DNA from: Candidatus Woesearchaeota archaeon | GTDB lineage: Archaea; Nanobdellota; Nanobdellia; Woesearchaeales; ARS49 | Reading direction: 5' to 3' | NCBI GenBank assembly: GCA_016929895.1 | Contig: JAFGHW010000001.1 | Location: forward strand, 135 to 64,134 | DNA: 64,000 nt | Shown: piece after piece, positions 13,095-59,162 of the stretch | Layout of the letters: the number at the start of each line of letters is the position of its first letter | Numbering within the stretch: position 1 is the first letter of the stretch | The notes under the pieces: model-generated | What the model saw: only the letters and a program-made list of their open reading frames with translations | What the model was told of the DNA's origin: nothing | Database searches by the model: none | Translations under genes and position numbers: made by a program

Positions 13095-13104
13095 TCTTAC
13101 TATA

Positions 13105-14624: not shown

Positions 14625-14633
14625 TTCGACCTC

Positions 14634-37147: not shown

Positions 37148-38572
37148 ATGAAGAAAATAATAGTGCTAATTATAATTCTACTAATCACGGCTCCATTAAG
37201 CAATGCAGAAATTTTCAGACTGGCAAATGTAAAAACATCTCCTTCTAAAATAGATAGAAGAACAGCAACAATAACAGAAGTGCCAGTTCAAATACAAACA
37301 GTATTTCTGCAAACAAATCCCAGAGAAGAAGCAAAAATAATATCAGCAAAAGCAAAATGTGAATCAGAAGACTTAATTGACTATTTCATAATAAAAGAAA
37401 CAACAAGAACACCAATAATTATCACAAAACTAATGCCTGCTACTGAAAAAAATTCAACAGAAATAAACTGCACAATACAATTAAAAATACTGCAAAACAA
37501 TAATACAATAGAAGAAGAAAAACAAATACAACAAACAATCCAATTATACTCAAATCCACTGGGCGAAATAAATGAAAACATACAAAACAAAATAAACCAA
37601 ATAAATGAAGACATACATGATTTTGAAAAACAAATAGCACATCTGGAAAGAACAAACCGAGTTCTGGGACAAATCGCGTCATATTCAGAAACAGCAGCAA
37701 AAGGAGACGCAATAATAACACAAGTACTCGGAGTAATATGGCCAATAGCAGTAGCACTTGAAGAAATCCCCACGCCGTACACAAAAGCAGCAGGAAGACT
37801 CTTATGGAATATAGCCGGAAAAGGACTTCATTCAGGCCACACATTTGTTTTATGGGCGATATGGAATCCCGGGTACAGCATAACAGGAGCCAGCACAATA
37901 CTAAGCACATTCACAAAAACATTGACAATAATGCAATCATGCCAGCTTTGCGATTATTCAGAAACACATACTGCCCTGATAGAACAAGCAGCAGGGGAAA
38001 AAATATTCACATTAGACGACAAACATGGAGAACCAACAACAATAGAGCAATTCACGATATATGAATGGGAGCCATATAAAAGCATACACGTAGCACAAGC
38101 ATGCCTTTGCCTGCCAGCAATTTCATACAATCTGGAAAAAGAAAAACAAATCAAATGCATTTACAAAAACTGCATAGAACAAAACGCAGAATACGGATTC
38201 CCTTTAACAGAATGCGAAAAAACACTAAAACAACAACAATGCCTGTATGTTGACGGAGCAGCCTGGAAAATATCAGGAGGAAATGCAGCGGCGCAAATAT
38301 TCTCTGAAATAACCAACACAATAATGAAACAACTGCCCGTAATATTTGCAGGAGAAATATGGCAAAACCTTTGCGATTATGAAACAGGAGTGTTTTCACA
38401 AGAAGCATATCCTGAAACATTTGGCCAGCCAAATATTCTCTCTGATATGGCCGTGCCATTATGCGCAGCAACAGCAGGAATGCAAATGCTTCAAGAAACA
38501 GGATTTTTCAAAGGAAACAAATACAAATGGGACCAGTACACAGGAAAACTAAAAGGAGATGATTATTGTTGA
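37148..38572 (+). CDS. Secreted protein A of the surface-protein cluster: signal peptide, coiled coil, hydrophobic helices and the shared Cys-rich module (ACLCLPAISYNLEKEKQIKCIYKNC...).
   Basis: Signal peptide MKKIIVLIIILLITAPLSNA. C-terminal module shared with the 1104-aa and 1865-aa proteins. Confidence 0.5.
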   Translation: MKKIIVLIIILLITAPLSNAEIFRLANVKTSPSKIDRRTATITEVPVQIQTVFLQTNPREEAKIISAKAKCESEDLIDYFIIKETTRTPIIITKLMPATEKNSTEINCTIQLKILQNNNTIEEEKQIQQTIQLYSNPLGEINENIQNKINQINEDIHDFEKQIAHLERTNRVLGQIASYSETAAKGDAIITQVLGVIWPIAVALEEIPTPYTKAAGRLLWNIAGKGLHSGHTFVLWAIWNPGYSITGASTILSTFTKTLTIMQSCQLCDYSETHTALIEQAAGEKIFTLDDKHGEPTTIEQFTIYEWEPYKSIHVAQACLCLPAISYNLEKEKQIKCIYKNCIEQNAEYGFPLTECEKTLKQQQCLYVDGAAWKISGGNAAAQIFSEITNTIMKQLPVIFAGEIWQNLCDYETGVFSQEAYPETFGQPNILSDMAVPLCAATAGMQMLQETGFFKGNKYKWDQYTGKLKGDDYC

Positions 38573-39030
38573 ATAAAAAAATAATATTTTTAATTATAGT
38601 GATTTTATTAGCCGCGCTTGTTTACGGCGGAGTTAGAACACCAACAACACCGTGGTATGAAGTAGAAGAATGGGAAATAGAAGTCTGCTCAAAATTCGCC
38701 GGAAACACTGCTCCTGAAAATGCAGAAACAGAAACTGGATTTGCCGCGTACGGAACAACAAGCATGACAATACAAGCATACAAAACAAATCTGGGCGATG
38801 AAAACTTCTATGAAGTATATTATTACATCGAACCATATGAAGAAACACAACAATATATTTTACAATTAGTTAATGAAAACCAAAAACTGAATTATGAAAT
38901 AGCATCAGGCACAATAGGAATAAATGCAGGAGTTGCAGATTATTACACAAATTATTCAACACAAAACTTTAATGAAGTGCGATTAGTGCACAAATACGGA
39001 GCATTCAAGGTTCCGATAATAGAAAGATGA
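38566..39030 (+). CDS. Membrane-anchored small protein B (N-terminal TM, Tyr/Glu-rich ectodomain).
   Basis: ORF overlapping neighbours by 7 nt and 4 nt (translational coupling). Confidence 0.4.
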   Translation: MLNKKIIFLIIVILLAALVYGGVRTPTTPWYEVEEWEIEVCSKFAGNTAPENAETETGFAAYGTTSMTIQAYKTNLGDENFYEVYYYIEPYEETQQYILQLVNENQKLNYEIASGTIGINAGVADYYTNYSTQNFNEVRLVHKYGAFKVPIIER

Positions 39031-41483
39031 AAACAAATAAAGCCAATGCCGCGCCACGTTATGGAAGCAAAGCACAAGTAACACTATTTATTATCCTTGG
39101 AATAATTATTTTACTTGCATTAGGATTAGGAATATACTTTGCAACAAAAGTAATTATCAAGCCAAAAATGCCGGCGACAGAAACCGCGATACAAGAATAT
39201 GTCCAGGAATGCATAAAACAAACAGCAATAATCGCGCTAAAAAAAATAGGGGACAATGGAGGATATATTTCATTTGAAAACAAATACAGAGAATTTAATT
39301 TACAAACAGAACCAGCAGAAGGAGACGGGCTGCCAATCTCTGAAATAGAACTGTACTCAATACCCTGCTGGTGGTATATGAAAACACCAAACCAATGCAA
39401 CAACTGCTATTTAACATCAGACAATATGCCATTACTTCCAGAAATAGAAGAACAAATCAATGAGTATGTTGCTAACAATTTAAACATATGCATTAAAGGA
39501 TTTGCGCCGTTCACTAACCAATACACAATCAAAACAAAACAAGAACCAATAATAGAAACACAAATCACAAAAGACTCAATAAGAATAACTTCTGAATACC
39601 CTATAGAAATCTCAAAAGCAGGGCAAACAACAAAAATAAAAGACTTTGAAACAGAAATAAATGTAAAATTCAAGGACATATATGATTTGGCCACTGAAAT
39701 AATAAACCTGGAAAAAGAAAAATCAGTAATTGAAGAAAGAATAATGCACATGCTGAGCGCGCATATGGGCGCGTCTTATGACAAACTGCCGCCAATATCA
39801 GAAATAACACACGACTATTATCTAATCACATGGGCGAAAGAAATAGTAAAAATAAAAATACAACAAACACTAAACAGTTACATGCCATTGCTTAGATTTT
39901 ACGGAACAAAAAACTCCAAAGAAATAAACTCAAAAAACAAATACACAAAAGGATTTTACAATGCAATGCAAATAAATGACCTCAACAAAAAATACAACTT
40001 ATTTTTAGACATATCCTATAATGACTGGCCGATTTATTTTTCAATAAACCCAGAACCATTAACAGGAACATATCACAAACAAAACTTCCCATATGACATA
40101 CTCCCGCCAATACAAACAAATACATATGAATTTTATTACGACCTGTCTATCCCGCTTTTATTCCAAATAAGAGACTCAAACGCATTTGGAGGAGAAGGAT
40201 ATACTTTGAATTTTGCAGTAGAAACAAACATAAGAGACAATAAAAACCCAAACAACTGGAATATCGGACAAGGAACATTAGGACCATGGGATTCAAGCAA
40301 AACAAAACAAGAAACACTAATAATCAACAGAACATCAGGCAAATGCACTGAAACAGCAGGAAAATACCAATGCAGTATTGACAACAAAAAATACGAAACA
40401 ATAACACAATGCACAGAAATGTGCTACACAGAAAAAAGAATAAGCCAAACAAAAAAAATATTTAAAACAGAGTTCTGCTCTGCTGAACAAAAACTAAGCG
40501 GAAAAATAAAAATAATCGTAAAATCAGGGCAAGAAAAAATAGAAACCGCAGGAATAAGCTACCGCTGCGGAAATTATAAAACCTGTTCTATAGGAATTAC
40601 CGACGAGAACGGAGAAGCAGAATTCCAACTGCCAATCTGCTATGGCGGAGCATTATCAGTACACAAACCAGGATATAAAACTGAAAAAGTTTCATTAAAC
40701 ACAGAAATAAACAAAGCAGAAATAATCAATTTTGACTTGAAAAAAGAAAAAGAATTCACAGTCAGCTTTAAAAAAATGCCTATAACTTCAACAGAAACAA
40801 AAAATGGAATAGAAGCAAGCTGCTGCGACAAAAAACAAAACCCTATTTCAACACAAAAAGCAACATTGAGCATAGAAAAAGTCAAAGAAAATCCTATTGA
40901 CACCTCGTTTGTACAAGCAATTGTTATTGACCAAGATTCAAAAATAAAATTAGTCCCGGGAAAATACAAAGTAACAATGCAATACCTTGACGAAATAGGA
41001 ATAGTAATCCCAGCAGAATGCAAATCAGTCTGCATAGAAGAAAAACAAAACAACGCAATCAAAGCATGCAGCACCGCATGCAAGGAAAACACAGAAATAA
41101 GCAAAACCAGCTGCAAAATAATATTCCCATTAAAACCAGAATGGTGCGAAGACCTGGACTTTGCAAAACAACAATGCGAAGAACACTGCGCAAAAACAGA
41201 ATGCAAAAAATGGATGAAACTGCCTGAAGAAGACATGAACATCAGGCCGGCTTTATTAGGCGGAGCAATGATTGATTCTGAAAACGGATACTGGATTGTT
41301 ACAGAAGCAGACATAAACTCAGGACTCACCAATATCAATTTTTACGTTCTAGAAGTACCAACGCCAACATGCCTTGATACAACAGGATGTGCATACCCGC
41401 CATGCATAGGATTAGACGAAATAGGAAAAATAAAAGAATATTCTGACTTATTCAGACAAGAATTAGAACCAGTATTTAGCTAA
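39027..41483 (+). CDS. Large (818 aa) surface protein P1 with a class III (type IV pilin-like) signal-peptide-like N-terminus and a carboxypeptidase-regulatory-like beta-sandwich motif. Paralogue of P2 and P3.
   Basis: N-terminal ...RYGSKA|QVTLFIILGIIILLALGLGIYF. Conserved blocks GDNGGYI, PCWWYM, GGEGYTLNFA, and TDENGEAEFQLPICYGGALSVHKPGYK. Confidence 0.55.
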   Translation: MKTNKANAAPRYGSKAQVTLFIILGIIILLALGLGIYFATKVIIKPKMPATETAIQEYVQECIKQTAIIALKKIGDNGGYISFENKYREFNLQTEPAEGDGLPISEIELYSIPCWWYMKTPNQCNNCYLTSDNMPLLPEIEEQINEYVANNLNICIKGFAPFTNQYTIKTKQEPIIETQITKDSIRITSEYPIEISKAGQTTKIKDFETEINVKFKDIYDLATEIINLEKEKSVIEERIMHMLSAHMGASYDKLPPISEITHDYYLITWAKEIVKIKIQQTLNSYMPLLRFYGTKNSKEINSKNKYTKGFYNAMQINDLNKKYNLFLDISYNDWPIYFSINPEPLTGTYHKQNFPYDILPPIQTNTYEFYYDLSIPLLFQIRDSNAFGGEGYTLNFAVETNIRDNKNPNNWNIGQGTLGPWDSSKTKQETLIINRTSGKCTETAGKYQCSIDNKKYETITQCTEMCYTEKRISQTKKIFKTEFCSAEQKLSGKIKIIVKSGQEKIETAGISYRCGNYKTCSIGITDENGEAEFQLPICYGGALSVHKPGYKTEKVSLNTEINKAEIINFDLKKEKEFTVSFKKMPITSTETKNGIEASCCDKKQNPISTQKATLSIEKVKENPIDTSFVQAIVIDQDSKIKLVPGKYKVTMQYLDEIGIVIPAECKSVCIEEKQNNAIKACSTACKENTEISKTSCKIIFPLKPEWCEDLDFAKQQCEEHCAKTECKKWMKLPEEDMNIRPALLGGAMIDSENGYWIVTEADINSGLTNINFYVLEVPTPTCLDTTGCAYPPCIGLDEIGKIKEYSDLFRQELEPVFS

Positions 41484-42145
41484 GAAATTTCCTGAATATC
41501 TGAAATAATAAAACAATTATTCCTAACATTTGCAGAAACAATATTCTCGCAATATTCTTTGTTTGACTGGCCAAAAAAGAAAAAACAATTGTCCCTGATA
41601 TCTGAATTTACTATTTGATTGCAGGCATTTGCATTATCAGAATTCTTTGCAACCAGAGAAATACATTCATCACTATTTTCCAAAAGACTGCACTGTTCTA
41701 ATGCAGATTGCGGATTAGAATTACTAAGCTCGCGAATCTCTTCCAAGGTTTTGGACGGGATAGCTTCTGTTTTTTTAACAAATTCTTTTTCAACAATTTT
41801 TTCCTCTATTTCTTCTTCAACATACGGCTCAGAAGGAGCAGCAGGCCTTTCGGACGGAACAGCAATCCATTTCTGCGCTTGTGTTTGTTTTTCAACAGGA
41901 ACCTTTACTAATTCTTCTGCAGGACGAATAAAAGAAATAAAAACCAAACCAACAATAACAAGAATTATTGCAATAATCAATAAAATCGAAAAAGAAATCA
42001 AAAAAGAACGCCTCTTAGCCCTGACGTCTTCCAAAGCCTGCTCAATCTGATAAGAAGAAAAACCCCTTTTCATAAGCTCAAGCTTTAATTCAGGCAAAGG
42101 CATGCCAGAATGCTTTTTAACATAATCCAACAAAGCTCTATCCAT
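41480..42145 (-). CDS. Single-pass membrane protein with a Cys-rich C-terminal domain (opposite strand, inside the cluster).
   Basis: ORF track. TM helix FLISFSILLIIAIILVIVGLVFISFI. Repeated C...N..C spacing at the C-terminus. Confidence 0.4.
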   Translation of the reverse strand: MDRALLDYVKKHSGMPLPELKLELMKRGFSSYQIEQALEDVRAKRRSFLISFSILLIIAIILVIVGLVFISFIRPAEELVKVPVEKQTQAQKWIAVPSERPAAPSEPYVEEEIEEKIVEKEFVKKTEAIPSKTLEEIRELSNSNPQSALEQCSLLENSDECISLVAKNSDNANACNQIVNSDIRDNCFFFFGQSNKEYCENIVSANVRNNCFIISDIQEIS

Positions 42146-42176
42146 ACAAGAATGATTAATCAGTTGTTATAAATAT

Positions 42177-42593
42177 TTATTGGTCAATCTTGGACAAATC
42201 CTGATTAAGAATGATTGGATTCATCCCAATCAATTCATCACTCAGACTATTATTTTCAGGAATAGGATTCATCAAGAAAACCGGCTTTCCTAACTCAAAT
42301 GCTTTAAATATCTCAAGAAAAGTTGCTCCGCCAATATAATTCTGTTGCCCGCGCTTTTCAAAATTCATAACAAGAATTGCATCATTTGCCATTACTTTTT
42401 CAATCTGTTTTCTTAAATAATAACTCTTAACCCTAATATGCTCTTCTCTTCCTTTTGCTTTAACTTTTTCTTCCAGCATAGGATCATCAAAACTATTAGG
42501 TAGAGTAATAGAATGACCTTTTTTTTCTAATTCTTCCTTAATAGGAGGAATCAAATGATACAAATGCTTGCTGGCACAAATAAAGATTTTCAT
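42177..42593 (-). CDS. Nucleoside 2-deoxyribosyltransferase-like protein (PF05014-like Rossmann fold).
   Basis: MKIFICAS...DAILVMNFEKRGQQNYIGGATFLEIFKAFELGKPVFLMNPIP resembles the deoxyribosyltransferase family pattern. Confidence 0.4.
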   Translation of the reverse strand: MKIFICASKHLYHLIPPIKEELEKKGHSITLPNSFDDPMLEEKVKAKGREEHIRVKSYYLRKQIEKVMANDAILVMNFEKRGQQNYIGGATFLEIFKAFELGKPVFLMNPIPENNSLSDELIGMNPIILNQDLSKIDQ

Positions 42594-42697
42594 AACTCCA
42601 CTAAAAAGTGTACAAAATATAAATCTTACTATTCACTCATAAAAAACAGTTAAATTTAAATACCCTAATTCTAAAATACCCAATATATAGTGATATG

Positions 42698-42797
42698 TCA
42701 AGAACCACCATTCGAATACAGGTGGTATGATAATTTGACTTTGCATCGAGTGGTTCTTGATGCTCAGGATTTCATCAATCTGGCGGTTCTTGAGCAC
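42698..42797 (+). promoter_or_regulatory. Array of three copies of a TGG[T/C]GGTTCTTGA motif (one inverted) plus a 6-bp hairpin, in the divergent intergenic region upstream of P2.
   Basis: tcaagaaccacca (42698-42710, inverted), tggttcttga (42751-42760), tggcggttcttga (42781-42793). TATA-like taaatataaa and AAGGAGGT SD precede the ATG at 42865. Confidence 0.3.
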
Positions 42798-42864
42798 AAC
42801 ATATTCCACTTAAATATAAACTAACAGATTGGTGGAATCCTGTTGTTAGAAAAAGGAGGTATTA

Positions 42865-45045
42865 ATGTATAATAAAAGAGGACAAGTAACTATATTCATA
42901 GTTATAGGACTCATACTTCTACTAGCAGTAGGCATAACAATCTACTTATATTCTGTTCAGGAACCAAGAGTAATTGAACAGGCAGAACTTCCAAGAGTGC
43001 AGCAAGTGCCAATAGAAGCAGAACCAATAAGACAATATGTGCGGGCATGCATAGAAGAAACAGCAAAAGAATCATTAATAAAACTAGGAGAACACGGAGG
43101 ATACATAGACACAACAGGATTTGCATACAATCCAATAGAACCGACAGAAGGCACTGCAGTTCAGTTCTCAAAAAATTCTGAATTAATAATACCATACTGG
43201 CGGCATATGGACTCGCCTAACACCTGTTTCTCAAACTGCCAATTTGACAGCAAAAGACCAACAATACAACAAATCAAAAAACAACTAGAAACCTATATGA
43301 ACCAAAACATAGAAAACTGCCTGGGAAATTTTGAAGCATTCCCAGAATACATATTCTCAAAAACAAAACCGCCACAAACAACAGTAACAATAGGACAAAA
43401 AAACATAGTATTCTACGTAGAATATCCGTTACATGCAACAAAAGGAACAACAACATTTGAAATACCTGACTATGCAACAAATATTGATTTGAATCTAAAA
43501 GAAATATACGATGTATCAACAAAACTAGTAGAACTAGAAAGCCAATACGGATACCTGGAAAAATACACAGGCCAATTAATCTCAGTATTCTCCAGATTAG
43601 ATGAAGATGCACTGCCGCCAATAGCAGAACTAGACATTGGACTAGGAGCAGGAACAATATGGACAGAACCACAAATCAAAGAAAAACTAACAGGAATGTT
43701 AACAAGCTATATCCCATTGCTACAAGTACCAGGAACACTAAACTACAAAGACAGAAACGCACCACAAGGAACAACAGACCCAGAACTATACAGAACCCTT
43801 TACAACAGAAACACAGCAGTATTATTAGACGAAGAAATAAAAGAATTACACCCAGAACTAAAAATCAATTTCAACTATCTTGACTGGTGGGATCCATACA
43901 TAGACGTATGCCCTGGCCAAGTCTGCCAAGCAGAAACAGCAACAAGCTCAATGCCAATGCTGGGAATGGTAATAGGAATACAAAGATACAATTTTGCATA
44001 TGACCTAAGCTTTCCAATACTAATCGAACTAACAAATCCATACTCGTTTAAAGGAGAAGGATACACATTCAAATTCTTCATAGAACACAACATGAGAGCA
44101 AACCAGCCAATGAAAACAAACTATCAAAGAACTCAAATGCTTGACATATCTGAAAACACAATGCTATGCAAAAAAGAACACTGGACTTCAGAAGAATTCA
44201 CGATAAAAGTAAATGACGGAAAAACAAAACAACCAGTAGATGAAGCACAAATCGCCTTTAACTGCGGAACAGAAAGCTGCAACATAGGAACAACAACCAA
44301 CGGAGAAATAAAAACAAAACTCCCGCAATGCATAGGAGGAATGATTCTTGTAGAAAAAAATGAATACCATCCTGCCAATGCTCTTGCAGACACGTCAAAA
44401 AAAGAAGAACAAACAATCACAATAACTCTTGAACCATACAGGCTGATAGACATAAACACAATGAAATGGCTAGTCAAGAAAACAGGACAAAATGCATGGA
44501 GCCTAGATGAAACAGGAAAAGCACACCCAGAAAAAGACGAAGAAACACTGATAATGCTTGAAAGACAAACCTCTGACTTAGAAGAAGCATTCAGAACTTC
44601 AGCACAAATATGCGGAGGACTAACAAAAGCAAAAATTCCATGCGGAGACCCTCCACGAGACAATTCAAAAAACATCAGAATGCTGCCGGGAAAATACAAA
44701 GTAAAAATATTCAATTTCAGATACCCACAACCAGCAGTAATAATACCAAAAGACCTGAGAACATTTGACGCCGGCCCATTTGCAGACCCAAAAAAAGTAT
44801 ACATACCTTCAGAAGACATAGTTTTTGACCAAAAACAACCACTGCCAACAGGAATAGCAGAATTTGAATGGGAACTAACAAAAGATGCACTAGACTCAAC
44901 AAATGAAATAACATTCAATTACTTATACTTTGCACTTGACAAAATACCAAAAAGCAACAGAAAAATCGAAGACTTAGAACAAATAGGAAAAATGCAATCA
45001 TACTCAACACTCTACAGAAAATATCTGGAGCCAGAACTTATATGA
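42865..45045 (+). CDS. Large (726 aa) surface protein P2 with a class III signal-peptide-like N-terminus (MYNKRG|QVTIFIVIGLILLLAVG). Paralogue of P1 and P3.
   Basis: Shared blocks GEHGGYID, PYWRHM, FKGEGYTFKFF, and FNCGTESCNIGTTTNGEIKTKLPQCIGGMILVEK. Confidence 0.55.
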   Translation: MYNKRGQVTIFIVIGLILLLAVGITIYLYSVQEPRVIEQAELPRVQQVPIEAEPIRQYVRACIEETAKESLIKLGEHGGYIDTTGFAYNPIEPTEGTAVQFSKNSELIIPYWRHMDSPNTCFSNCQFDSKRPTIQQIKKQLETYMNQNIENCLGNFEAFPEYIFSKTKPPQTTVTIGQKNIVFYVEYPLHATKGTTTFEIPDYATNIDLNLKEIYDVSTKLVELESQYGYLEKYTGQLISVFSRLDEDALPPIAELDIGLGAGTIWTEPQIKEKLTGMLTSYIPLLQVPGTLNYKDRNAPQGTTDPELYRTLYNRNTAVLLDEEIKELHPELKINFNYLDWWDPYIDVCPGQVCQAETATSSMPMLGMVIGIQRYNFAYDLSFPILIELTNPYSFKGEGYTFKFFIEHNMRANQPMKTNYQRTQMLDISENTMLCKKEHWTSEEFTIKVNDGKTKQPVDEAQIAFNCGTESCNIGTTTNGEIKTKLPQCIGGMILVEKNEYHPANALADTSKKEEQTITITLEPYRLIDINTMKWLVKKTGQNAWSLDETGKAHPEKDEETLIMLERQTSDLEEAFRTSAQICGGLTKAKIPCGDPPRDNSKNIRMLPGKYKVKIFNFRYPQPAVIIPKDLRTFDAGPFADPKKVYIPSEDIVFDQKQPLPTGIAEFEWELTKDALDSTNEITFNYLYFALDKIPKSNRKIEDLEQIGKMQSYSTLYRKYLEPELI

Positions 45046-48000
45046 AACCAAAAATAATTGCAGGAATACTAGCAATGCTCGTAATAATGCTAACACCAGC
45101 ATATGCAGCACAAATGGACATAACAAAATACTCAGGAACAGACGAAATAAACGGGTATGCAAGAAGTTCTGACCAAATAACAATAGAAGCAACAGCAGAA
45201 ATGTACGGAAGCCCGTCAATGGAAGTTGCAGCCAGAAGATTAAAAATATATCACTCAGGAATAAGCGAAAGATTCCAAACCTGCTCAACAATAGGAAAAA
45301 CAGCATACAAATGCACATACACAACAACAGGACCATACTCAGGACAAAAACAATTCAAAATAGAACTGCTTGATGCAGACGGAAATGTAATAGAAGCAAC
45401 AGAAAAAACAATAATCATTGACAATCTCGCGCCGATAATAACTGACTTCAGCATAACACCATTACGCGGAACAAACAAAAAAGTAACAATTAATTACAAA
45501 GCAGAAGATTACGCCACAACAACAAGCGACACTTCAACATGCTCTGGAATAAAAGAAATTGGATTCTACATCAACAACATAAAAGTTGCAGCAGAAGCAG
45601 GGCAAAAAGAACAATGCCAAAAAGAAAACGCGATAGACTATACAAGACAAGTTTCAGATTATGAAAAAATAAATTTATGCGCCAGAGCAACAGACATGAT
45701 AAACCAACAAAGCGACCCAGTATGCAAAGAATATGAAATAGACAACCAGCCGCCGCAAATCATATCATTACAACTAAAAGATGCAGACGGATTTGACATA
45801 ACCGGAATGAGAAGCGGAACAAGCCTTACAGGAAGCATAGAAGCAGTAGTCAAAGGAAATAATGATGATGTAGATGCAGTAACAGCAGACCTGTCTTATC
45901 TAAATCCATCACTAACAGGAGAAAAAATGCCTGACGAAAGATACGGAAATAATTACGTATGGAAAGACATATCAATAACCAATCCATCAAACTGCAAAGT
46001 AACAATAAGAGCAATAGATGATTTAGGCAATGAAATAATAGAAACAAAAACATGCACAGTACCAGTAGATGACACAGGACCAGAAGCAGTAAAAATAGAA
46101 ACAAACAAAACAGATGAAGACGGAACATTATTAATCGGAAAAAAAGGAACAATAACACTTGAAATACGAGAAGCAGGAGCAGGATTATTCAAAAAACACG
46201 TTTACCTTGACTTGGCATCCCTTGGAAGAAAATATTCATCACAACAAAGAGCAGACACATGCGAAATAAAAACAGGAGATGTATGGGAATGCACATGGGA
46301 AATAGAACCAATAGTGCCAGACAAAGATTATACTATTCGTTTAAGCCCTGCAACACGAGATGACTTGGACAATTCAATAAGCAGTTCAATAGAAACAACA
46401 ATCCGAATTGACAAACAACCGCCAACAATAGAAGACTTTGCATTTTCAGTAAAACATGCATTTGCAGAATACGGAGAAAAAACAGTAAAAGGAGACACAA
46501 TGGAATTCAAAATCAAAACCTACGGAACATTCTATGCATATGCAAACTTCACAGGCATTGGAGGAAACTATGCACCAGGAACATGCGGAGGAGAAAATAT
46601 CAGAACATGCGAATTCAGCCAATTAATTACTCGTTCAGGACCAGACAATGCAACAATAGAATTTGAACTCTTTGACAGAGCAGGAAATAAACAAACATAT
46701 TCCCATGATTTAATAATTTACGGCTTATCAGATGACACATCACCAGAATACTGGAACTCAACAGTTTCATGTTCTCCAAAATTAATCGACCGCAGCACAA
46801 CAGAACAAAAAGAACAAATGATTTACTGCCATATCAATCTTGATTCTACTAATGATGATGCAGAACCTGTTTTTACTTCTATTGATAAATCATTATCAGA
46901 ATGCCGGGGACAACTCGCAGGAATATCAGAAATACAAATGATGAACAATGGATATGGAAGCAAAGACCCATACATGGTAATCACACTAGAACTTGCAGAA
47001 TTTGCAATAAACAACATGAGCTTTAGCTGTCCAATCCATATTGCATCAAAAGTGGGGGACTATTTTTCAAAAGCAGATGAAAGAGAAATAATTGATGTAG
47101 AACTGGAATTTTATGACCTGCCAATAGGAGAGGTATATGAAAACATTGAAAAAGACATTCATCATGAAATGCGAAAAGCAATGACAACAATGAGCTGGAT
47201 AGATGATGTAGAAAAAATCACAGAAATAGCAAGAAAAATCTGCGGGTACAAATCAACAATAACAAGCCTATTAAGTGCATTAGATGGAGTATTCGCATTA
47301 TTCCCACTGTTATATTCCGCATTATACGCATCAGGACAAAAAGGAACAGTAGATGACTTAGAAGCATACAGGGCATCAATGTGCAATGATGCAAGAGGAC
47401 CAGCAGAACAGTTTATATTTGGTCTTGGAGAAAAAGAAGCAAAAGAAAAAAATGCAGAGCCAGAAGCAGCAAAAACAATAGTAGAAAGAATAGCAGGAAC
47501 AGAATCAAGCGAAGCAAAAGCTGTGCAAGATTTTTGGGAATTCATAGACATGTTTTGTGATTTTCTAAACTGCAGACTAACATGGGATGATGCAAAATAT
47601 GCAACACACAAAAAAGGAGTAGAAGCAGGCTGGAAAGAATCAAAACTAGGAACAGGCGAAGAACTATTTCTAATAGGCGGAGGAGGAGGCGGATGGGGCA
47701 AACAAGGCTCTATATGCACTGGTGCTCAAAACATGCTCGGAGCAAGCTGGTTTAGCGAATACCAAACAATGCAGGACAAAATGAGAGGGCCAGGAGAACA
47801 AAGACAACAATTAGTAGATGTAAAAGAAAGCCTGTTCTGGAGCACACTATGCTTTTGTGGGCCAGGAATAATTTATAATTTAAACAAAATCAGGCAAATT
47901 AATTGCAAATACGCACTATGCTTAGCTGAAGAAGTAAAAACACAAGGAATAGACCCTGCATGGTGCCGAGCTGAAAAAGCATACCTAACATGCACATATG

Positions 48001-48356: not shown

Positions 48357-48396
48357 AAAAATTTGGGGCAAATTTTTTTGTGTTCATAATAAAATT

Positions 48397-49446: not shown

Positions 49447-49447
49447 A

Positions 49448-52191: not shown

Positions 52192-52194
52192 AAA

Positions 52195-55100
52195 ATGAAA
52201 ACAAAAAAAACAATTGCAATAATGATGATGGTTTTAATAGTGATGATGCCAATTGTTTATTCAGAACCTTCTGAAACATTTGAATTATTTGCAACAGTGC
52301 CGACTGCAACAAAAGACAACACAGTAACAATAACAGGAACAACCAAAGCAAACATTGATGTAGTTGTAAGCGTAAACAAAGCGCGTGTTGCTGAAATAAT
52401 AAGCGATTCTAATGGAGAATTCTCAACATCACCAATTACTCTTGTTCAAGAAAACAATGACATAACCATAAAAGCAACAGATTCCCAAGGAAACATCAGA
52501 ACATTAACCTACAATATAAAACTAGACAACAGTCCTCCAAAAGTTACTTACATAAACATACCAACAGGAAGCCAAACAAGAACAATAACCATCACTGGAA
52601 CAACAAATGAACCAGTAACAATTGACTGGAAAACAAGCAATTTAACAATCTACAAATCAGTTCAAGCAAAGGATACTTTTAATTTTAATATTGACTTAGA
52701 AGACGGATTAAACAAACTCGAACTAATAGCAAAAGACTCGGCAGGAAATCAAGACAAGCAAGAATTTGAAATAATGCACGATGTAGTTGCACCAAGCTTT
52801 TTATTAACAAACCTTGACGGACTAGACAATTGCTATCTGGATTTCCCGGCAATAAAAGGAAAAAAAGTCGACATAACAGGACAATTAAATGAAAAAGCAA
52901 CAATATTTGTATATGTAAACCATGAATCAAACCCAAGCAAAGTAAGAACAACAGATGAAACAGGATATTTCAGAATAAAAGATGTTCTGCTTGAAGGAAC
53001 ACTAAAAATAAAAACAAGCCCAACACAAACAACAATAGAAACAGGAAACCAATACGAAAATCACATCCGACTTGTTGCAAAAGACCTTGCAGGAAATGAA
53101 GCCCAAATAGAAAAAACAATCACCTGCGAAACATGCGGAGGGGGCGCAGCAGGATATTCATTAAACACAGCATCAGCACTACAAGCAATGACACCGACAG
53201 AATTATTGCCAAGCCTTTTAATAACAGGCATAGAAACAATTACAATACCATTTAACCTAAGCTATGTCGGACTAAATGAAGCAGCAATACGGAGCATACA
53301 AGTAACACCAGTAATAATGGGGCCGGAATATGAAAAAGACTATGATAATGACAAAATAACTGCATCAGTCCTGCCTTTATACTCCAGAGACAAGCAAACA
53401 GCAACAGGAATCATACAAATAAAAATAAACAAATTCGACCCATTAGGAAGTTCTGAAAAAGATGCAACACACTACAGAAGAGAATACAATGTATCAAGGC
53501 ACAGATATGGAAAATGCGCATTCCAGCCAGAACTAGGAAAAGACTTAGATTACGGATGCATGAGATTCTTTCTAATGATGGAAGTACAATACCAAGAAAC
53601 AACTGAACAAACTTATCTAGACCCAAATGTCCAGCAAACAGGACTAAAAAGAGAAAACAAAATACAAAAAATCTGTTTTTCAAACATAGAAGTATCAATA
53701 GCCAAAGTAACAGAACAGTATATTCCTAAAAAAATGGTCAAAAAATGGATAAAAAACATAGACCATATCCTAAAAAAAGCAGAACCAGTAAAAGAATATC
53801 TTGACACTGCAACAGAATATGCAACTTACACATGCCTGGCAAGCGCAGGAACACTTGCACTTGCAAGACTGGCAGAACTAACAACGTGCCAAATATCAGA
53901 ATGGATTGCCTCTATTGGAGAAGCCAGCTGGCACTCAGAAATAGCAGAAGCAGGAATATGCGAACTAGTATATCATGAAGATTTTGATAAAAAGGGCAGT
54001 GAAAAAGGAATCAAAGGAAATGAAAGAGCAAGAAACTCATGCATAGCCTGCTCTGAAATGATAGGACTAAGAAAATGGATAGAATATGAAGTAATGCACC
54101 GTGCATGCGACAGAGTCGGGTGTCCTGCAGCCAAAACATTCAAATCATACATTCAAGACAAAGCAGGAAAAATAAACGACATAACACCATACATAAAAAC
54201 TCATTTTGACAAAGCAAAAGCACAAGGAAAAGAAACAGAAAGCAAAATGCAGACAATACTAACAGAACACGGCGCGCCAATGACACAACAAACAAATGTT
54301 GCCAACAAGAGAGTATTTGTAGGAAATGACTGCGGATTTACAACAACACCAAAATACATCAGCACAACATACAGCGACATTTCTGGAAAAGGAATAAAAA
54401 CATTATACGAATACACAAAAGCCCAAGGACCAAGAGAATACTGCACAAAATATTTGCGGGCAGCACAGCCAGAATGCTGCGGCATAAATTATGCGCGCGA
54501 ATGGAGCACAGCATGCGGAATAGGACAAGTAAGCGGAGAAAATGTTTTCTTACTAGACACATTTGACGAACTAAAAGAAAGCACATGCTATGCAGCAAGA
54601 CAAGCAGGAGACCCGTCAGCAGCAGGAACAGGAATAGACTGCAGCGGAGGAATGCTATGGAATGCAATGGCAGGATTTTGCGAGCCAAACACAGGGGCTG
54701 CAGTAGACGAAGTAATCCACACAGGAATGAATTACGAACCAAGAAAACAAGACTCAGAAGACAACAGAGTTTATGTATTTGTAACACCAGAAATAAATGC
54801 AAAAAAAGAAACAGAAGACTATAAAATATACCGCGGATATGCTGTCAATAAACTAAAATACGAAGCCAACAAAGAAGAACACAAAGACGCAAAAAGATTA
54901 ACACAATCATTATACAAAGTTTATGACAGTGAAAACCTTGCGCATATTTTCAAAAACGAAAAAACTAGTGACAAACAAAAACAAGCTGAACTGAAAACAG
55001 CACTATGCGAAAAAAATAAAAAACAAGATGTTGAAAAATGCGAGAATATAGAAAGAACATACAACAGAATAAAAGAAATAATCGGTTCAGAAGACAACAA

Positions 55101-57792
55101 AGAATACATTGTAAGAGCAGACACAGGACTATTACGCTCAATACAATGCATCTGCTTTCCAGCTGTAAAAGCATGGGTAGACCAATGGCTTAAAATCCTG
55201 ACAATGCTGCGCAACTGCCTGGCAACAGTAGAAATAGGAAAAGGAGATGCAGGAGTATGCGATGATTTCTTATCACAAGTAGTATGCGACAGAATATATG
55301 AATTACTAAAATGCTTTTCAAGCAAAATCGGATGGTCAGGAGCAGGAAAAAGAATAACAGGAGACTTTGGAATAGGAAGCATAATAGGAATACTAACCAA
55401 TACTGCATCAGAAATGAGCAAAACAATGGAATCAAGATATGGCGAAACAAGCATGTGGACAGCATTATTCAATGAACGCGACCTTGTACACGGAGTATGC
55501 ATGTGGGCATTCACAGGAAAATATGACCTGCAAATAGAACAAATAGTCCAGCACACAACAGAAGAAATCGCAATAGAAAGCCAGCCATTCATAGGAGAAT
55601 GCAAACGATACTTCAGAGGATATTCACCAACAACAGTGCCAACAGGACTAACAACATGGGCATATGAATGCGGAATGGCAATGGTAGCCGGAGCAAATAT
55701 AACCTACCAAATAAAACTACAATGCAGCAATGACTTCAGATGCTCTGAAAAAGACGGATTTAGAAACAATGAATGCGACTGCGTAGGAAAAGACCGGCCG
55801 CAAATACACATAGCAGAAAGAGGACCAATGAACAAAGGAGACATGTTCAACAAGAAATTCACCTGGCCAATACAAGCAGGACAATCAGGCTCAAAATACA
55901 GGTATGACACAGCAATACTATACTATGAATGGATAGACCCAAAAACAAATGAAAAAAGATCAAACCAAGCAACAAGATACATAGGACAAGCAGGAGCAGA
56001 ACCATTTGGATTCTGCGCATTTGACCCAGTCACAGTCGCATTTAGATGCCAGTTTGGAAAACAAGAAGGAAGCATAAAAATCAAAGACATAGACCCAGAC
56101 TACAAAGACAGCGAGCATCCAACAAAGAAAACAAAAGTATTCTTCATGGACCAGCCATTCACATTTGAAGCAAAAATCAAACAAAAAATGCCAGACGACC
56201 CGGCAGAACAACAGGAAGCAAAAAAATTCCTATACTACAAAATAATTAATCACGCAGGAAGCACTGTAAAAGAAATAAAACCAGAAGAAGACACTGCAGT
56301 CTGGGTATTTGAATCAAACGGAGACTACACAGAAGAAATAGAAATAGAACTTCCAGAAGATGACATAAAAAAATATCTAGACCAAACACCAGGAGAAATA
56401 GCAATGGCACAAATAGAAACAGACGGAACAACAAAAACAGCAGAACCAACAGATTACATATCATCATACACAGTATTCAAAAGAGAAAAAAAAGAAAAAG
56501 GCAAAGAAGAAATCAAAAGCATCTCAGCAATAATAGAAATGACCTCAGAAGAAATAGCAATATACAACACAAGAAGCAAAACAGCAAGCACGTTCTACAA
56601 AGGAGACATAATGCTAGCAAAACAACCAAATGAAGAAGGCGAATTACATGTTCCATCAGAAGTAAACCAATACCAAATAAAAGTGACAATAGAAAAACTT
56701 CCAGAACCAGGACAAACAGTACGCATATACGTTCCTGCACAAACCTCTTTAGTGCCGACTCCATTAAAAACCAAAGACCCGGCAGACTGGAGAGCAATAT
56801 TCACTTTATACGATGCAAACAAATACGGAGAAACAACAGACCAAGTAACAATAAGCCCTGACGGGCAAAAACAAATAAAAGAAGTCACTTTCAAAGTAGC
56901 AGGCATGACAGAAGAAGAAGGCGGAAAATTTGTAGCAGAAGAGAAAAAAGAAATATCCAAACCAACACCTAGTAAATACATGTTAATACAACCTCCATAT
57001 AAATTTTATTCAGAAGATAGTGGCAAGACATGGACAGTATATAAAACTCAGCCTGATTTAACAGTTGACGTAGTTGATAAAGATTTAGATATTCAAAAGG
57101 TTGAAACAAAATATGACGTAACAGAAAAAGAACTGCTAATACCCATGGTTAATGTTGAAATAATTTCTCCTCAAAAATCAATAATTGGACTGAGATTGCC
57201 TATTATTAATACAGGATTAAAAGTCACATTTGAAGCAGAGGCAACAGGAGGAACAGGAACCGGATACACATATGAATGGCTCATCTCAGGAAAAACATAT
57301 ACCGGCAATAAATTCAGTATTGATTATTCAACTAAAGACGACTTTAAAGAAGGACAAGGAGAACAAGCACACATTATTGCCACAGATAGCGCAGGAAATG
57401 GCAATACTGAAACTATAACATTTTATCCGCGAACTCGTAATTCGCATGTTATTTTATTAAATGATGGCACTAGTTTTTTAGAACAAGATAAACTAGATTT
57501 TGAATATATAGATAATGAATGGCAATTGCTTACTCAGAGTTGGAGAATGGAAGAAGCATACTCCGGCGGTATTGATCCGTGGTGGAACAAGATTTTTGAA
57601 GAAATGCGAAAAGTAAAAAATGATTATTCCCAAGGAGTGGAAGTCCTTGTCAAAGCAACTAATAAAGAATGGGGAACAAGACGAGGCATTGATCCATATT
57701 TAGTTGTTATGAGATCTAAATATCAAGAGTTAACTCATAAGTGTTGTGATATTGATGCAGAAGAAGTTAAACAGCAAGCCAGAGAAAATTAA
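52195..57792 (+). CDS. Giant (1865 aa) secreted protein K: signal peptide, tandem Ig-like domains, the shared Cys-rich module (CICFPAVKAWVDQWLKILTMLRNC...) and a long C-terminal beta-rich region.
   Basis: Signal peptide MKTKKTIAIMMMVLIVMMPIVYS. N-terminal Ig-like repeats (TVTITGTT...; TITITGTT...). Single uninterrupted ORF. Confidence 0.6.
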   Translation: MKTKKTIAIMMMVLIVMMPIVYSEPSETFELFATVPTATKDNTVTITGTTKANIDVVVSVNKARVAEIISDSNGEFSTSPITLVQENNDITIKATDSQGNIRTLTYNIKLDNSPPKVTYINIPTGSQTRTITITGTTNEPVTIDWKTSNLTIYKSVQAKDTFNFNIDLEDGLNKLELIAKDSAGNQDKQEFEIMHDVVAPSFLLTNLDGLDNCYLDFPAIKGKKVDITGQLNEKATIFVYVNHESNPSKVRTTDETGYFRIKDVLLEGTLKIKTSPTQTTIETGNQYENHIRLVAKDLAGNEAQIEKTITCETCGGGAAGYSLNTASALQAMTPTELLPSLLITGIETITIPFNLSYVGLNEAAIRSIQVTPVIMGPEYEKDYDNDKITASVLPLYSRDKQTATGIIQIKINKFDPLGSSEKDATHYRREYNVSRHRYGKCAFQPELGKDLDYGCMRFFLMMEVQYQETTEQTYLDPNVQQTGLKRENKIQKICFSNIEVSIAKVTEQYIPKKMVKKWIKNIDHILKKAEPVKEYLDTATEYATYTCLASAGTLALARLAELTTCQISEWIASIGEASWHSEIAEAGICELVYHEDFDKKGSEKGIKGNERARNSCIACSEMIGLRKWIEYEVMHRACDRVGCPAAKTFKSYIQDKAGKINDITPYIKTHFDKAKAQGKETESKMQTILTEHGAPMTQQTNVANKRVFVGNDCGFTTTPKYISTTYSDISGKGIKTLYEYTKAQGPREYCTKYLRAAQPECCGINYAREWSTACGIGQVSGENVFLLDTFDELKESTCYAARQAGDPSAAGTGIDCSGGMLWNAMAGFCEPNTGAAVDEVIHTGMNYEPRKQDSEDNRVYVFVTPEINAKKETEDYKIYRGYAVNKLKYEANKEEHKDAKRLTQSLYKVYDSENLAHIFKNEKTSDKQKQAELKTALCEKNKKQDVEKCENIERTYNRIKEIIGSEDNKEYIVRADTGLLRSIQCICFPAVKAWVDQWLKILTMLRNCLATVEIGKGDAGVCDDFLSQVVCDRIYELLKCFSSKIGWSGAGKRITGDFGIGSIIGILTNTASEMSKTMESRYGETSMWTALFNERDLVHGVCMWAFTGKYDLQIEQIVQHTTEEIAIESQPFIGECKRYFRGYSPTTVPTGLTTWAYECGMAMVAGANITYQIKLQCSNDFRCSEKDGFRNNECDCVGKDRPQIHIAERGPMNKGDMFNKKFTWPIQAGQSGSKYRYDTAILYYEWIDPKTNEKRSNQATRYIGQAGAEPFGFCAFDPVTVAFRCQFGKQEGSIKIKDIDPDYKDSEHPTKKTKVFFMDQPFTFEAKIKQKMPDDPAEQQEAKKFLYYKIINHAGSTVKEIKPEEDTAVWVFESNGDYTEEIEIELPEDDIKKYLDQTPGEIAMAQIETDGTTKTAEPTDYISSYTVFKREKKEKGKEEIKSISAIIEMTSEEIAIYNTRSKTASTFYKGDIMLAKQPNEEGELHVPSEVNQYQIKVTIEKLPEPGQTVRIYVPAQTSLVPTPLKTKDPADWRAIFTLYDANKYGETTDQVTISPDGQKQIKEVTFKVAGMTEEEGGKFVAEEKKEISKPTPSKYMLIQPPYKFYSEDSGKTWTVYKTQPDLTVDVVDKDLDIQKVETKYDVTEKELLIPMVNVEIISPQKSIIGLRLPIINTGLKVTFEAEATGGTGTGYTYEWLISGKTYTGNKFSIDYSTKDDFKEGQGEQAHIIATDSAGNGNTETITFYPRTRNSHVILLNDGTSFLEQDKLDFEYIDNEWQLLTQSWRMEEAYSGGIDPWWNKIFEEMRKVKNDYSQGVEVLVKATNKEWGTRRGIDPYLVVMRSKYQELTHKCCDIDAEEVKQQAREN

Positions 57793-57856
57793 AAAACCTT
57801 TATATATAATAAAAGCAAAAAATATTAAAAAAGGTGATAAATTGCAAAAAATAATG

Positions 57857-58444
57857 GGATTTTTTTTCTTTATATCATTCTTAGGATTTGGACTGATGCT
57901 TGGAGGACTATACATAATATCAACAGGAGAATTTGTTCTTCAGCCAATAGAAGAATTCGGTCTGTTTGAAACATCGCAAATGTTCAGCACAGGACAAGCA
58001 TTTGAACAACCAACACTGACAGTACAACCACAACTTCAGGAAGGAGAAATGCCAAAAGACTCATTAATACCTGCAGACATACAATTATACGTCAATAGAA
58101 TACCAGTAGCAGCCAATTTTCAATCAGCATTCATACCCATATATCACGATGACATGAAAACCTTTTCAGGAAAATTCGGGCCATATGATTTTGACCCAAG
58201 ACAATTCATAGGAGCAAAGCTATGCTCTTTTCCAAAAACATTCCCAGACATGCTAAACTGCGAAACAGTAGCATTAAACTATGCAAACGGCTATGTTCAT
58301 TTTGCAAGAGGATACATGCATGACGAATACATAGGAAGACAAGCACTAAAAAATTACGGCGCAGTATATTTTATAGTAAGCCCGACATACGGCAACATAG
58401 CCCAAAGCCCAACTGCAATCATAAAGGTGGTAGAACATGACTGA
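57857..58444 (+). CDS. Membrane-anchored protein L (N-terminal TM MGFFFFISFLGFGLMLGGLYII). An alternative TTG start at 57842 follows an AGGTGA SD.
   Basis: Internal start of track ORF 57746..58444, chosen to avoid a 47-nt overlap with K. Confidence 0.35.
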   Translation, partial: GFFFFISFLGFGLMLGGLYIISTGEFVLQPIEEFGLFETSQMFSTGQAFEQPTLTVQPQLQEGEMPKDSLIPADIQLYVNRIPVAANFQSAFIPIYHDDMKTFSGKFGPYDFDPRQFIGAKLCSFPKTFPDMLNCETVALNYANGYVHFARGYMHDEYIGRQALKNYGAVYFIVSPTYGNIAQSPTAIIKVVEHD

Positions 58445-59162
58445 ACAAACAAAAACAGTATTCTTTGCAATCATTGCATTAACAGGAATGATGGCATTAT
58501 TCTTCACAATAGGAAACAACCTAGAAACAACAGGACAATCAATAGGCCATACACAAGCAGTAAATTATGAAGCACAAACAAAAGTTACAGCATCAGGAAG
58601 CTTTGGAGGACTAGGAAATGGAAGAGCATCACTAAGTTTTTCTACCTCTGCAGGACCTGCAACAGGAACATTCTCAGGAGAATATGAATCCGGACCAATA
58701 CAAGCAATATACAACGGACAATTATCAGGAACATTTGCAGGAGGAGACGGAGGAACAGTTTCAGGAACAATGAGCGGAAGAGGACAAATGCTGTCAGGAA
58801 ACCTACAACAAGGATGGCAGCCAATAAGCGGAACATTCAAAGGAATAATATCATTTTCAAAAGGAACAGTAACAGGAAACTGGAATGGCGGACAATCAGG
58901 AGGACAATTTAATCTACGCTTTACACCAATACAAGGAATACAAAAAGCAACAACACCATCAACAGTCACACAATACGGAGTAACAACAACACAAGTAGAA
59001 GCACCATTAGGATACTGCAAATGCAGAACAAGCAGACCATACATAGTAGGAGTAGGAGGAGACCCATACGGAACATCAGAAGGACTAGACTTCAAAGGAT
59101 TCATGACATACCAAGCATGCCAGAACACCTGCCCTGGAAGATATGTATGGAGAGAGAGGTAG
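58437..59162 (+). CDS. Membrane-anchored Gly/Thr/Ser-rich repeat protein M with a Cys-containing C-terminus.
   Basis: N-terminal TM. Repeated GTFxG / SGxxxG blocks. C-terminal CKCRTSRPY...CQNTCPGRY. Confidence 0.4.
   Translation: MTEQTKTVFFAIIALTGMMALFFTIGNNLETTGQSIGHTQAVNYEAQTKVTASGSFGGLGNGRASLSFSTSAGPATGTFSGEYESGPIQAIYNGQLSGTFAGGDGGTVSGTMSGRGQMLSGNLQQGWQPISGTFKGIISFSKGTVTGNWNGGQSGGQFNLRFTPIQGIQKATTPSTVTQYGVTTTQVEAPLGYCKCRTSRPYIVGVGGDPYGTSEGLDFKGFMTYQACQNTCPGRYVWRER

Follow-up and report, generated by a model that had tools for sequence, protein, structure and literature searches.

What is built from a run of genes for secreted and membrane proteins in an uncultured archaeon, when every database name met for their families is 'hypothetical protein'? 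The question is raised by a stretch of 64,000 nucleotides (nt) of Candidatus Woesearchaeota archaeon (assembly GCA_016929895.1, contig JAFGHW010000001.1, positions 135 to 64,134 of the forward strand), referred to below as the window. An initial annotation, made from the sequence alone, had placed a cluster of such genes at 37148-59162 on the plus strand, divided it into three repeating units and suggested a host-attachment structure. We found that the cluster contains a block of seven genes, P2-G-H-I-P3-K-L, whose order is kept across many Woesearchaeota loci. P2 and P3 encode large proteins with a predicted prepilin-type signal, and each is followed by the gene for a giant cysteine (Cys)-rich secreted protein, G or K. 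Our preferred reading, to which we give a little less than an even chance, is that the P proteins are anchors presenting G and K at the cell surface as a complex for contact with a partner cell. The seven genes are listed below; a slash in a signal sequence marks the predicted processing site.

P2, 42865-45045, plus strand: core protein with a predicted class III-type signal.
G, 45042-48356, plus strand: secreted protein of 1,104 amino acids (aa); signal peptide, N-terminal region of about 600 aa, Cys-rich and mostly helical C-terminal module.
H, 48346-49446, plus strand: signal-anchored protein, transmembrane segment 23-41; Pro/Glu-rich spacer and conserved C-terminal domain; no Pfam domain.
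I, 49448-50227, plus strand: polytopic protein with about 5-6 transmembrane helices; no Pfam domain.
P3, 50227-52191, plus strand: core protein with a predicted class III-type signal, KKA/QVTLFIILG; matches P1 and P2 in BLASTP.
K, 52195-57792, plus strand: secreted giant of 1,865 aa; signal peptide, immunoglobulin (Ig)-like domains at 38-193, Cys-rich core, beta-rich region, variable tail.
L, 57746-58444, plus strand: small signal-anchored protein, transmembrane segment 40-58; no Pfam domain; conserved downstream of K.

The starts of H, I and L are uncertain, as is that of the accessory gene B (TTG). The true start of H may be the ATG at 48397; the open reading frame (ORF) of I opens at 49337, and translation probably begins at the ATG of 49448, one base past the stop of H; L probably starts at 57755 or 57854.

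Conserved gene order

Scanning one genome for each GTDB species with a pattern yielded 99 P2 relatives, with 80 loci retained, and an exhaustive HMMER search with the K core returned 397 representative proteins, giants of about 0.7-3.1 thousand residues. A metagenome scan with a K profile added 64 further loci. The set used for synteny comprised 148 related loci, in which ORFs were called by an ATG-first rule and searched with the window proteins by single-sequence phmmer at E <= 1e-4; the counts obtained in this way are lower bounds. The block conserved across these loci was P2-G-H-I-P3-K(-L). P2 was followed by G in at least 83 of the 95 loci with a P2-type gene, and P3 by K in at least 74 of the 84 loci with K. 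The complete order P2-G-H-I-P3-K was present in at least 25 loci, and L followed K in at least 17. The block lay just downstream of the ribosomal protein gene rpS6e in at least 15 loci and downstream of a homologue of the membrane protein U199 in at least 27, while X1, a divergent gene, stood upstream of P2 in at least 30. Gene I was kept between H and P3 (60 ORFs from related loci). The position of H was likewise conserved; its homologues differ in length, with about 350 aa among the called ORFs and 842 and 985 aa in annotated loci. Judged from this order, which is kept across about 150 loci at 25-80% identity, the unit is the conserved heptad P2-G-H-I-P3-K-L together with its frequent neighbours U199 and X1.

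The relatives carry the labels Woesearchaeota, Nanoarchaeia and Nanoarchaeota; a few are labelled 'uncultured Methanosarcinales', Binatia or Aenigmatarchaeota, and these are taken to be mislabelled bins. As far as database titles show, the cluster is restricted to Woesearchaeota and the class Nanoarchaeia. Since the block often lies beside rpS6e among housekeeping genes, it is a vertically inherited, lineage-wide part of the core genome. The setting in the window is of the same kind. P2 is 100% identical to the NCBI protein JW851_00285 of Candidatus Woesearchaeota archaeon, and A corresponds to JW851_00260. The flanks are occupied by archaeal housekeeping genes (proteasome alpha, SBDS, exosome Rrp4/41/42, Cbf5, ThrRS, S19e, L31e, S6e, NOG1), and the guanine-cytosine (GC) content stays at 32-39% along the whole window, with no shift in composition where the cluster lies. 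These observations place the cluster on the chromosome of a DPANN archaeon, in keeping with what the initial annotation had supposed. The genes accompanying the heptad in the window are the following.

U199, 36483-37082, plus strand: type II membrane protein between rpS6e and the cluster; cytoplasmic helical N-terminus, transmembrane segment 79-97, extracellular Ig-like domain (weak Big_9 match, E = 0.04); homologue at the same position in 27 loci.
A, 37148-38572, plus strand: truncated G paralogue; no Ig stalk between its Sec-type signal peptide and the Cys-rich helical module.
B, 38566-39030, plus strand: small signal-anchored protein, transmembrane segment 5-23; positional counterpart of H; putative TTG start.
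P1, 39027-41483, plus strand: accessory paralogue of P2 and P3 with a predicted class III-type signal, SKA/QVTLFIILG.
X1, 41480-42145, minus strand: single-pass membrane protein, transmembrane segment 52-70; 6 Cys, Cys-rich extracellular repeat.
M, 58437-59162, plus strand: signal-anchored protein, transmembrane segment 8-26; Gly/Ser/Thr-rich with a C-terminal Cys cluster; lineage-specific.

The ORFs and their overlaps had been placed correctly by the initial annotation; its division of the cluster fared less well. The unit begins before the proposed start at 37148, because U199 (36483-37082) is kept with the cluster in 27 loci. In place of three equivalent units, A-B-P1, P2-G-H-I and P3-K-L-M, synteny gives the heptad and a lineage-restricted, degenerate duplicate, and M, for which no homologue was detected after L in other loci, drops out of the unit. 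The A-B-(I')-P1 unit was present in only 5 scanned loci, all of them with B, and in locus L150; P1-type homologues are the proteins P0067-P0073 and that of L150. In relatives it reads A-B-I'-P1, with A as a full-length G paralogue of 1,057-1,084 aa (L007, L010, L150) and I' of 254-268 aa, and it looks like a paralogous copy of the G-H-I-P unit. The copy in the window is degenerate, with an A that lacks the Ig stalk and without a paralogue of I. B gave a weak profile match to the C-terminal domain of H (hhalign 27%, E = 7e-4, 80 columns). A single family of B, H and L was considered and rejected: the support for B-H is weak, and L is unrelated to either. The X1 of the window is shorter than its homologues (about 400 aa).

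A two-gene version occurs in locus L085 (10001-15608), where a gene for a P3-like protein of 650 aa stands directly before that for a protein of 1,215 aa. The latter had no detectable homology to K or G and only a faint TSP3_bac match. This minimal pair suggests that the basic module consists of a P protein and a giant partner.

Genes within the cluster are closely packed. Overlaps were found between A and B (38566-38572, with the putative TTG start of B), B and P1 (39027-39030, 4 nt), P2 and G (45042-45045, 4 nt), and L and M (58437-58444, 8 nt); I and P3 have base 50227 in common (1 nt), and P3 and K are separated by 3 nt. The short overlaps suggest translational coupling.

Surface character of the products

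An N-terminal hydrophobic segment was found in each plus-strand product of 36483-59162, and I has at least five such segments, in agreement with the earlier statement that all of them bear a signal peptide, signal anchor or transmembrane helices. The absence of enzymatic, ATPase and transport domains was confirmed by Pfam and NCBIfam scans of the cluster proteins, in which the only significant matches were to Ig-like domains (Glucodextran_B, Big_6, Big_13) at K residues 38-193. A PHROGs scan of the members gave nothing beyond one Ig-like stretch. At least four protein families of the cluster are without Pfam, NCBIfam or PDB sequence relatives.

The Cys content was 1.2-3.3% in all cluster products except B and L, compared with 0.8% in cytoplasmic proteins of the window. 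N-glycosylation sequons were depleted (18 observed against 42 expected from composition in ten plus-strand products), and P2, L and M have none. Since Cys is enriched two- to four-fold (not in B and L) and sequons are depleted, the composition suggests surface proteins stabilised by disulfides rather than by glycans. A gene at 32522-33706 (minus strand), 3.5 kb upstream of the cluster, encodes a membrane protein with a thioredoxin-fold (Glutaredoxin) and a DsbD/CcdA-type transmembrane domain, and could plausibly supply extracytoplasmic thiol-disulfide chemistry for Cys-rich surface proteins. Neither PGF-CTERM nor a C-terminal transmembrane sorting signal was found in G, K, A and the P proteins, which have polar ends and no C-terminal hydrophobic segment, and direct reading of the cluster translations revealed no LPXTG near any C-terminus.

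Prepilin-type signal and fold of the P proteins

P1, P2 and P3 had been taken as paralogues with pilin-like signals, and this was confirmed (BLASTP E = 1e-58 for P1-P2, 9e-44 and 5.5e-40 for the other pairs). Their N-termini have a basic leader of 4-9 aa, the motif K-[KR]-[GAS]/Q-x-T-x-F-I-I-I-G and a conserved Tyr at +21. Of 160 P proteins, 112 fit this pattern in its strict form, and within the window the motif occurs in P1-3 only. Q7 is invariant in an alignment of 73 P sequences whose mean column identity is 26%. The motif matches a class III (prepilin-type) signal and is predicted to act as one; all three proteins fit the FlaFind-type pattern. Q at +1 is also found in the EppA-processed pilins of Methanococcus. 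Going by its conservation, the signal is far more constrained than a plain anchor needs.

The AlphaFold model of P2 (predicted local distance difference test, pLDDT, 86.5) consists of a helix at 5-31, a low-confidence linker at 32-39, an alpha/beta domain at about 50-420 and beta-sandwiches at about 445-690. The alpha/beta domain holds the invariant Trp, Tyr and Pro of the family (positions 112-384) and most near-invariant residues, and fold search gave no PDB or BFVD match for it. The sandwiches are CnaB/transthyretin-like; fold matches included SlaB (template-modelling scores, TM-scores, 0.12-0.17), TIE proteins and the CnaB domains of Gram-positive pilins, and in the model these parts may be stalk or adhesin modules. 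A pilin fold, with a continuous alpha1 packed on a beta-sheet head, was not seen in the P2 model, since the linker splits the helix from the globular part. The initial description of P1-3 as 'minor-pilin-like' therefore holds for the signal peptide and fails for the fold; genes for a filament ATPase or platform are likewise missing from the vicinity. The P proteins have no hydrophobic segment beyond the N-terminal anchor. P2 had no match to a solute-binding-protein fold, and the cluster encodes neither a solute-binding-protein domain nor a transporter. Neither the 64-kb window nor the surrounding 10 kb in each of six annotated relatives (L001, L002, L084, L085, L150, L151) contained a gene for a small major pilin; in these relatives the sole filament-type gene was one Peptidase_A24, 10 kb downstream in L084.

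Cys-rich giants A, G and K

The initial annotation had assigned a common Cys-rich module to A, G and K. BLASTP relates A to G with E = 3e-5 only; a hidden Markov model (HMM) of 61 G-family sequences matched A at 27-415 with E = 2.2e-39, and 10 of the 13 invariant columns of the A/G alignment are Cys. K was not matched by the G-family HMM. When 146 K cores and 46 G modules were compared profile to profile, they matched with 86% probability and E = 4.6e-6 over 67 columns, and K968-1034 and G920-987 have the motif C-x-C-[LIV]-P-[GA]-[IV] ... C ... C ... C in common. The case for a shared module, as far as these alignments go, is strong for A/G and moderate for K.

G and K have predicted cleavable Sec-type signals and no C-terminal anchor, and K has no hydrophobic segment past the signal peptide. 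The G module contains one conserved hydrophobic helix at about 733-761 (median Kyte-Doolittle 1.9 over 19 residues); a simple transmembrane topology for G was rejected in view of the charge distribution and the Cys-rich region after this helix. The N-terminal 600 aa or so of G can be read as tandem Ig-like domains, because of 'D-x-x-P-P' motifs at 233, 342 and 456 and weak Big_3 matches. The G-module profile found no relative among PDB sequences, and a profile of full-length K homologues found fn3/Ig domains only.

The conserved Cys-rich core of K comprises about 1,000 aa (approximately 300-1300, with peak conservation at 1000-1200); it is followed by a beta-rich part up to about 1600, past which the tail is poorly conserved. 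Head and tail lengths vary in the family, the tail from 0 to 1,461 residues, and most of the 41 scanned homologues have N-terminal Ig-like/fn3 domains. Murein hydrolase domains (Pfam Amidase_2, Glucosaminidase, Peptidase_M15_4/VanY and SLT) were identified in 3-4 of these 41; the hydrolase-tailed giants are those of L084 (11850-16649), P0211, P0230, and the SLT and M15 members of alignment A7. Other tails, inspected by eye, contained coiled coils, Cys-rich repeats and, in P0213, a possible HExxH motif. K thus has a modular, variable distal end. No toxin/immunity pairs were identified for the K family. The domain content of the hydrolase tails points to bacterial partners or prey in those lineages.

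Proposed function and alternatives

Woesearchaeota are tiny, probably partner-dependent archaea that have no murein of their own, and are among the most widespread uncultured archaea. From the above we infer cleavage of the P proteins, docking of P to G and of P to K, surface exposure of the complex and its role in contact with a partner or host, as follows. A prepilin-type peptidase encoded elsewhere would cleave P2 and P3 after K-[KR]-[GAS], and the conserved N-terminal hydrophobic helix would keep them in the membrane. In each P, the CnaB/transthyretin-like beta-sandwiches would form a short stalk from which the globular alpha/beta domain projects, and each P protein would be co-translated with a giant Sec-secreted partner, P2 with G and P3 with K. 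Because G and K lack a membrane anchor of their own, they could stay at the surface through docking to the anchored P, H, L and U199, and the polytopic I may act as an assembly or anchoring factor. The giants would consist of Ig-like domains and disulfide-stabilised Cys-rich bodies, and the working end touching another cell would be K's variable C-terminal tail, perhaps joined by the Cys modules. The chief reason to think that the distal end of K may meet a foreign, bacterial envelope is that different murein hydrolase domains are recurrently fused to it in archaea that lack murein, and contact with the bacterial wall is likely in the lineages with such tails. In the window, the degenerate A-B-P1 unit would add a second G-like head. 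Host attachment, proposed initially, remains the best guess, and the hydrolase tails of K homologues lend it new, if indirect, support.

Several observations weigh against this reading. The K of the window has no hydrolase tail, as is the case for about 90% of the scanned homologues. The P2 alpha/beta domain and the cores of G and K are without relatives in structure or sequence and so offer no link to adhesion; the matches of the P2 beta-sandwiches are generic, and the AlphaFold 2 model of the G module, a beta-sandwich followed by helices, is of low confidence (pLDDT 50, 11 sequences supplied). A prepilin peptidase, filament ATPase and platform gene are all missing from the 64-kb window, and no filament ATPase or platform gene was found within 10 kb in L001, L002, L084, L085, L150 and L151. 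To our knowledge, host attachment has yet to be demonstrated by experiment for any Woesearchaeon. A bolder version of the contact reading, which we consider rather doubtful, makes the heptad a new contact machine of Woesearchaeota, an attachment and feeding device without an ATPase in cis, unrelated to pili, archaella, S-layers and known secretion systems, in which the Cys modules and the interchangeable tips of K would bind and breach the partner envelope.

The P signal, with its strongly conserved helix signature of Q at +1, G at +9 and Y at +21, could also belong to an accessory set of a type IV filament, in which P1-3 would be giant minor pilins or a tip/priming complex, G and K filament-borne adhesins analogous to PilY1/PilC with minor pilins, and the assembly machinery and major pilin would be encoded elsewhere. 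The Peptidase_A24 gene 10 kb downstream in L084 fits this idea, as does the frequent inclusion of large Ig-rich or PilY-like adhesins in archaeal filament loci, as described in a recent survey (10.64898/2026.04.22.720090); archaellin genes of Woesearchaeota, according to a metatranscriptome study (PMC11606122), are highly expressed, which can be counted on the same side. However, no ATPase, platform or small major pilin gene is present in the window or within 10 kb in the six annotated relatives, the P2 model has the intervening linker 32-39 in place of a continuous alpha1 on a beta-sheet, and subunits of 650-900 aa are far above the known size of pilins; we regard a filament as unlikely. About as unlikely, in our estimate, is a two-component S-layer-like coat, with P2/G and P3/K as membrane stalk and canopy in the manner of SlaB/SlaA and with H, I and L assisting in assembly or anchoring. 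The core-genome status of the block and its stalk-plus-giant logic would suit an envelope. The SlaB match, however, reflects generic beta-sandwiches at the low TM-scores given above, the P proteins are anchored N-terminally and not C-terminally, the depletion of sequons speaks against a coat, variable and sometimes enzymatic tails as in K are unusual for a lattice protein, and seven genes with two different giants exceed the complexity of known S-layers; in addition, S-layer genes annotated separately, which may or may not coincide with genes of the cluster, are reported to be among the top-expressed ones of Woesearchaeota (PMC11606122).

DPANN archaea depend on scavenging, and the murein hydrolase tails of some K homologues might be read in this sense: the complex would be a bindosome-like scaffold for nutrient capture or exo-hydrolysis, binding or degrading polymers such as cell-wall debris for uptake, with a precedent in class III-signal substrate-binding proteins encoded away from filament loci. 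We think this quite improbable, because the core members contain no transporter, binding-protein fold or enzyme domain, the P2 fold search gave no solute-binding-protein match, and no linked ABC transporter was found in annotated relatives, except an unrelated convergent one in L085. Least credible of all is a chance run of secreted hypothetical proteins or an island of a virus or mobile element. The annotation of all members as hypothetical would allow it, and the GC content is unremarkable, but chance and mobility are excluded by the synteny kept across about 150 loci at 25-80% identity between housekeeping flanks and by the lack of viral relatives, with no PHROG matches except the Ig-like stretch and none in IMG/VR. 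Viral or mobile origin was rejected on these grounds.

For partner contact, the locus supplies a defined, lineage-wide candidate gene set with a recognisable processing signal. Full-text literature searches, and term searches in papers on the activity of Woesearchaeota, the genomes of Nanobdellota, the attachment organelles of DPANN archaea and the diversity of archaeal type IV filaments, yielded no published account of the cluster or its families, in line with the initial remark that no described archaeal pilus, archaellum or S-layer locus matches it. Cryo-electron tomography of cultivated relatives has described attachment organelles; in one such paper, term searches met no mention of gene clusters, pilins or proteomics (PMC11420986).

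Region upstream of P2 and other genes of the window

Two further features lie between X1 and P2.

X2, 42177-42593, minus strand: cytoplasmic protein of 138 aa; not a conserved member.
Structured insertion of about 150 nt, 42690-42850, plus strand: after a conserved promoter-like sequence and before the P2 ribosome-binding site.

The 'repeat-containing regulatory region' of the initial annotation proved to be this insertion. It contains a perfect inverted repeat of 11 nt and another of 18 nt (89%), with a minimum free energy of -54.3 kcal/mol (z = -4.47), and is absent from the closest relative compared, L004, in which X1 abuts the P2 upstream region and only the flanking 'cactcataaaaaacagttaaatttaaataccct' is kept. 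No Rfam family was matched at gathering score. A repeated miniature inverted-repeat transposable element was rejected, the insertion being single-copy in the window; it could be a lineage-specific 5'-untranslated regulator or a small inserted element. X2 had no phmmer match in any scanned locus, and searches of Pfam and of PDB sequences gave nothing above noise at E <= 10. Its description as 'deoxyribosyltransferase-like' is unsupported by these searches but may still be right, since the segment 'GGATFLEIFKAFELGKPVF' resembles, by eye, the motif of that family.

Elsewhere in the window, 20958-25388 (minus strand) encodes a surface protein of 1,476 aa unrelated to the cluster families, with a lipobox-like signal LFILAGC/TD, 85 Cys, several internal repeats of about 200 aa ('YRCWW.QHWSGGPHVINHY...'), 'CGDGNIDVGEQCE'-type Cys repeats, a C-terminal transmembrane helix and a basic tail; it had no Pfam match. 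A second membrane-associated multi-protein system is represented by a Bat-like operon at 11141-18802 (minus strand), encoding MoxR AAA+ ATPase, DUF58, DUF7502, coiled-coil, vWA and BatA/vWA/DUF7407/DUF7408 proteins. A 93-nt tRNA at 5111-5203 (minus strand) was detected by the Rfam covariance model (52.6 bits) and not called by ARAGORN; it probably contains an intron, and tRNA introns are common in archaea. Convergent to the cluster, 59594-60472 (minus strand) encodes an extremely acidic protein of 292 aa with a long D/E-rich N-terminus and a single transmembrane segment at 209-227, without a Pfam match.

Comparison with known systems

In the survey of archaeal type IV filaments, proteins that bear class III signals without being pilins have their genes apart from the filament machinery, as in the bindosome, and large Ig-rich adhesin-like proteins accompany the filament loci (10.64898/2026.04.22.720090). 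Like the P proteins, those of the Sulfolobales bindosome combine a short basic leader, G/A at -1 and a conserved hydrophobic helix with a large non-pilin protein, and their genes, too, are not beside filament ATPase or platform genes. Unlike them, the P proteins lack a solute-binding fold and an ABC transporter neighbour, are 650-900 aa long, each have a giant secreted partner, and consist of an alpha/beta domain without PDB/BFVD match and CnaB-like sandwiches. The filament systems 2, 4A/B and 4G, as far as that survey describes them, resemble the cluster in having class III-signal proteins, membrane accessory proteins and Ig-rich adhesin-like proteins (10.64898/2026.04.22.720090). They differ from it in that the cluster has no ATPase, platform or small pilin in cis; Pfam, NCBIfam and PDB sequences gave no match for the Cys-rich cores of G and K, and the adhesin families were compared by description.

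SlaA/SlaB of Sulfolobales are similar to a P protein and its giant in the combination of an anchored beta-sandwich stalk with a large (>1,000 aa), adjacently encoded outer protein, and SlaB was a top fold match of P2. Unlike SlaB, P has an N-terminal pilin-type helix and neither a C-terminal transmembrane segment nor a coiled coil, and the cluster comprises two different pairs, the additional H, I and L, and Cys-rich, sequon-depleted proteins with variable K tails. No S-layer domain was matched in the cluster proteins by Pfam or NCBIfam. With Gram-positive sortase pilins and MSCRAMM/TIE adhesins, P2 has only the CnaB-like fold in common; LPXTG, sortase and evidence of isopeptide bonds are missing from the cluster, the host is archaeal and the anchoring is different.

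The conserved scaffold of K and its variable, sometimes enzymatic C-terminus recall CdiA, Rhs/teneurin-like proteins and the SPEARE giants of Nanohaloarchaeota, the last of which also occur in a DPANN context. No sequence or domain relationship to these was detected, K has no evident immunity gene or dedicated transporter, and its enzymatic tails are murein hydrolases, not nucleases or proteases (except for the possible HExxH seen by eye in P0213). The protein families of the cluster are new; their general kind, surface proteins with class III signals accompanied by giant Ig-rich adhesin-like proteins, is known. If the contact complex proposed here is real, the uses of class III signal peptides extend beyond pilins and binding proteins.

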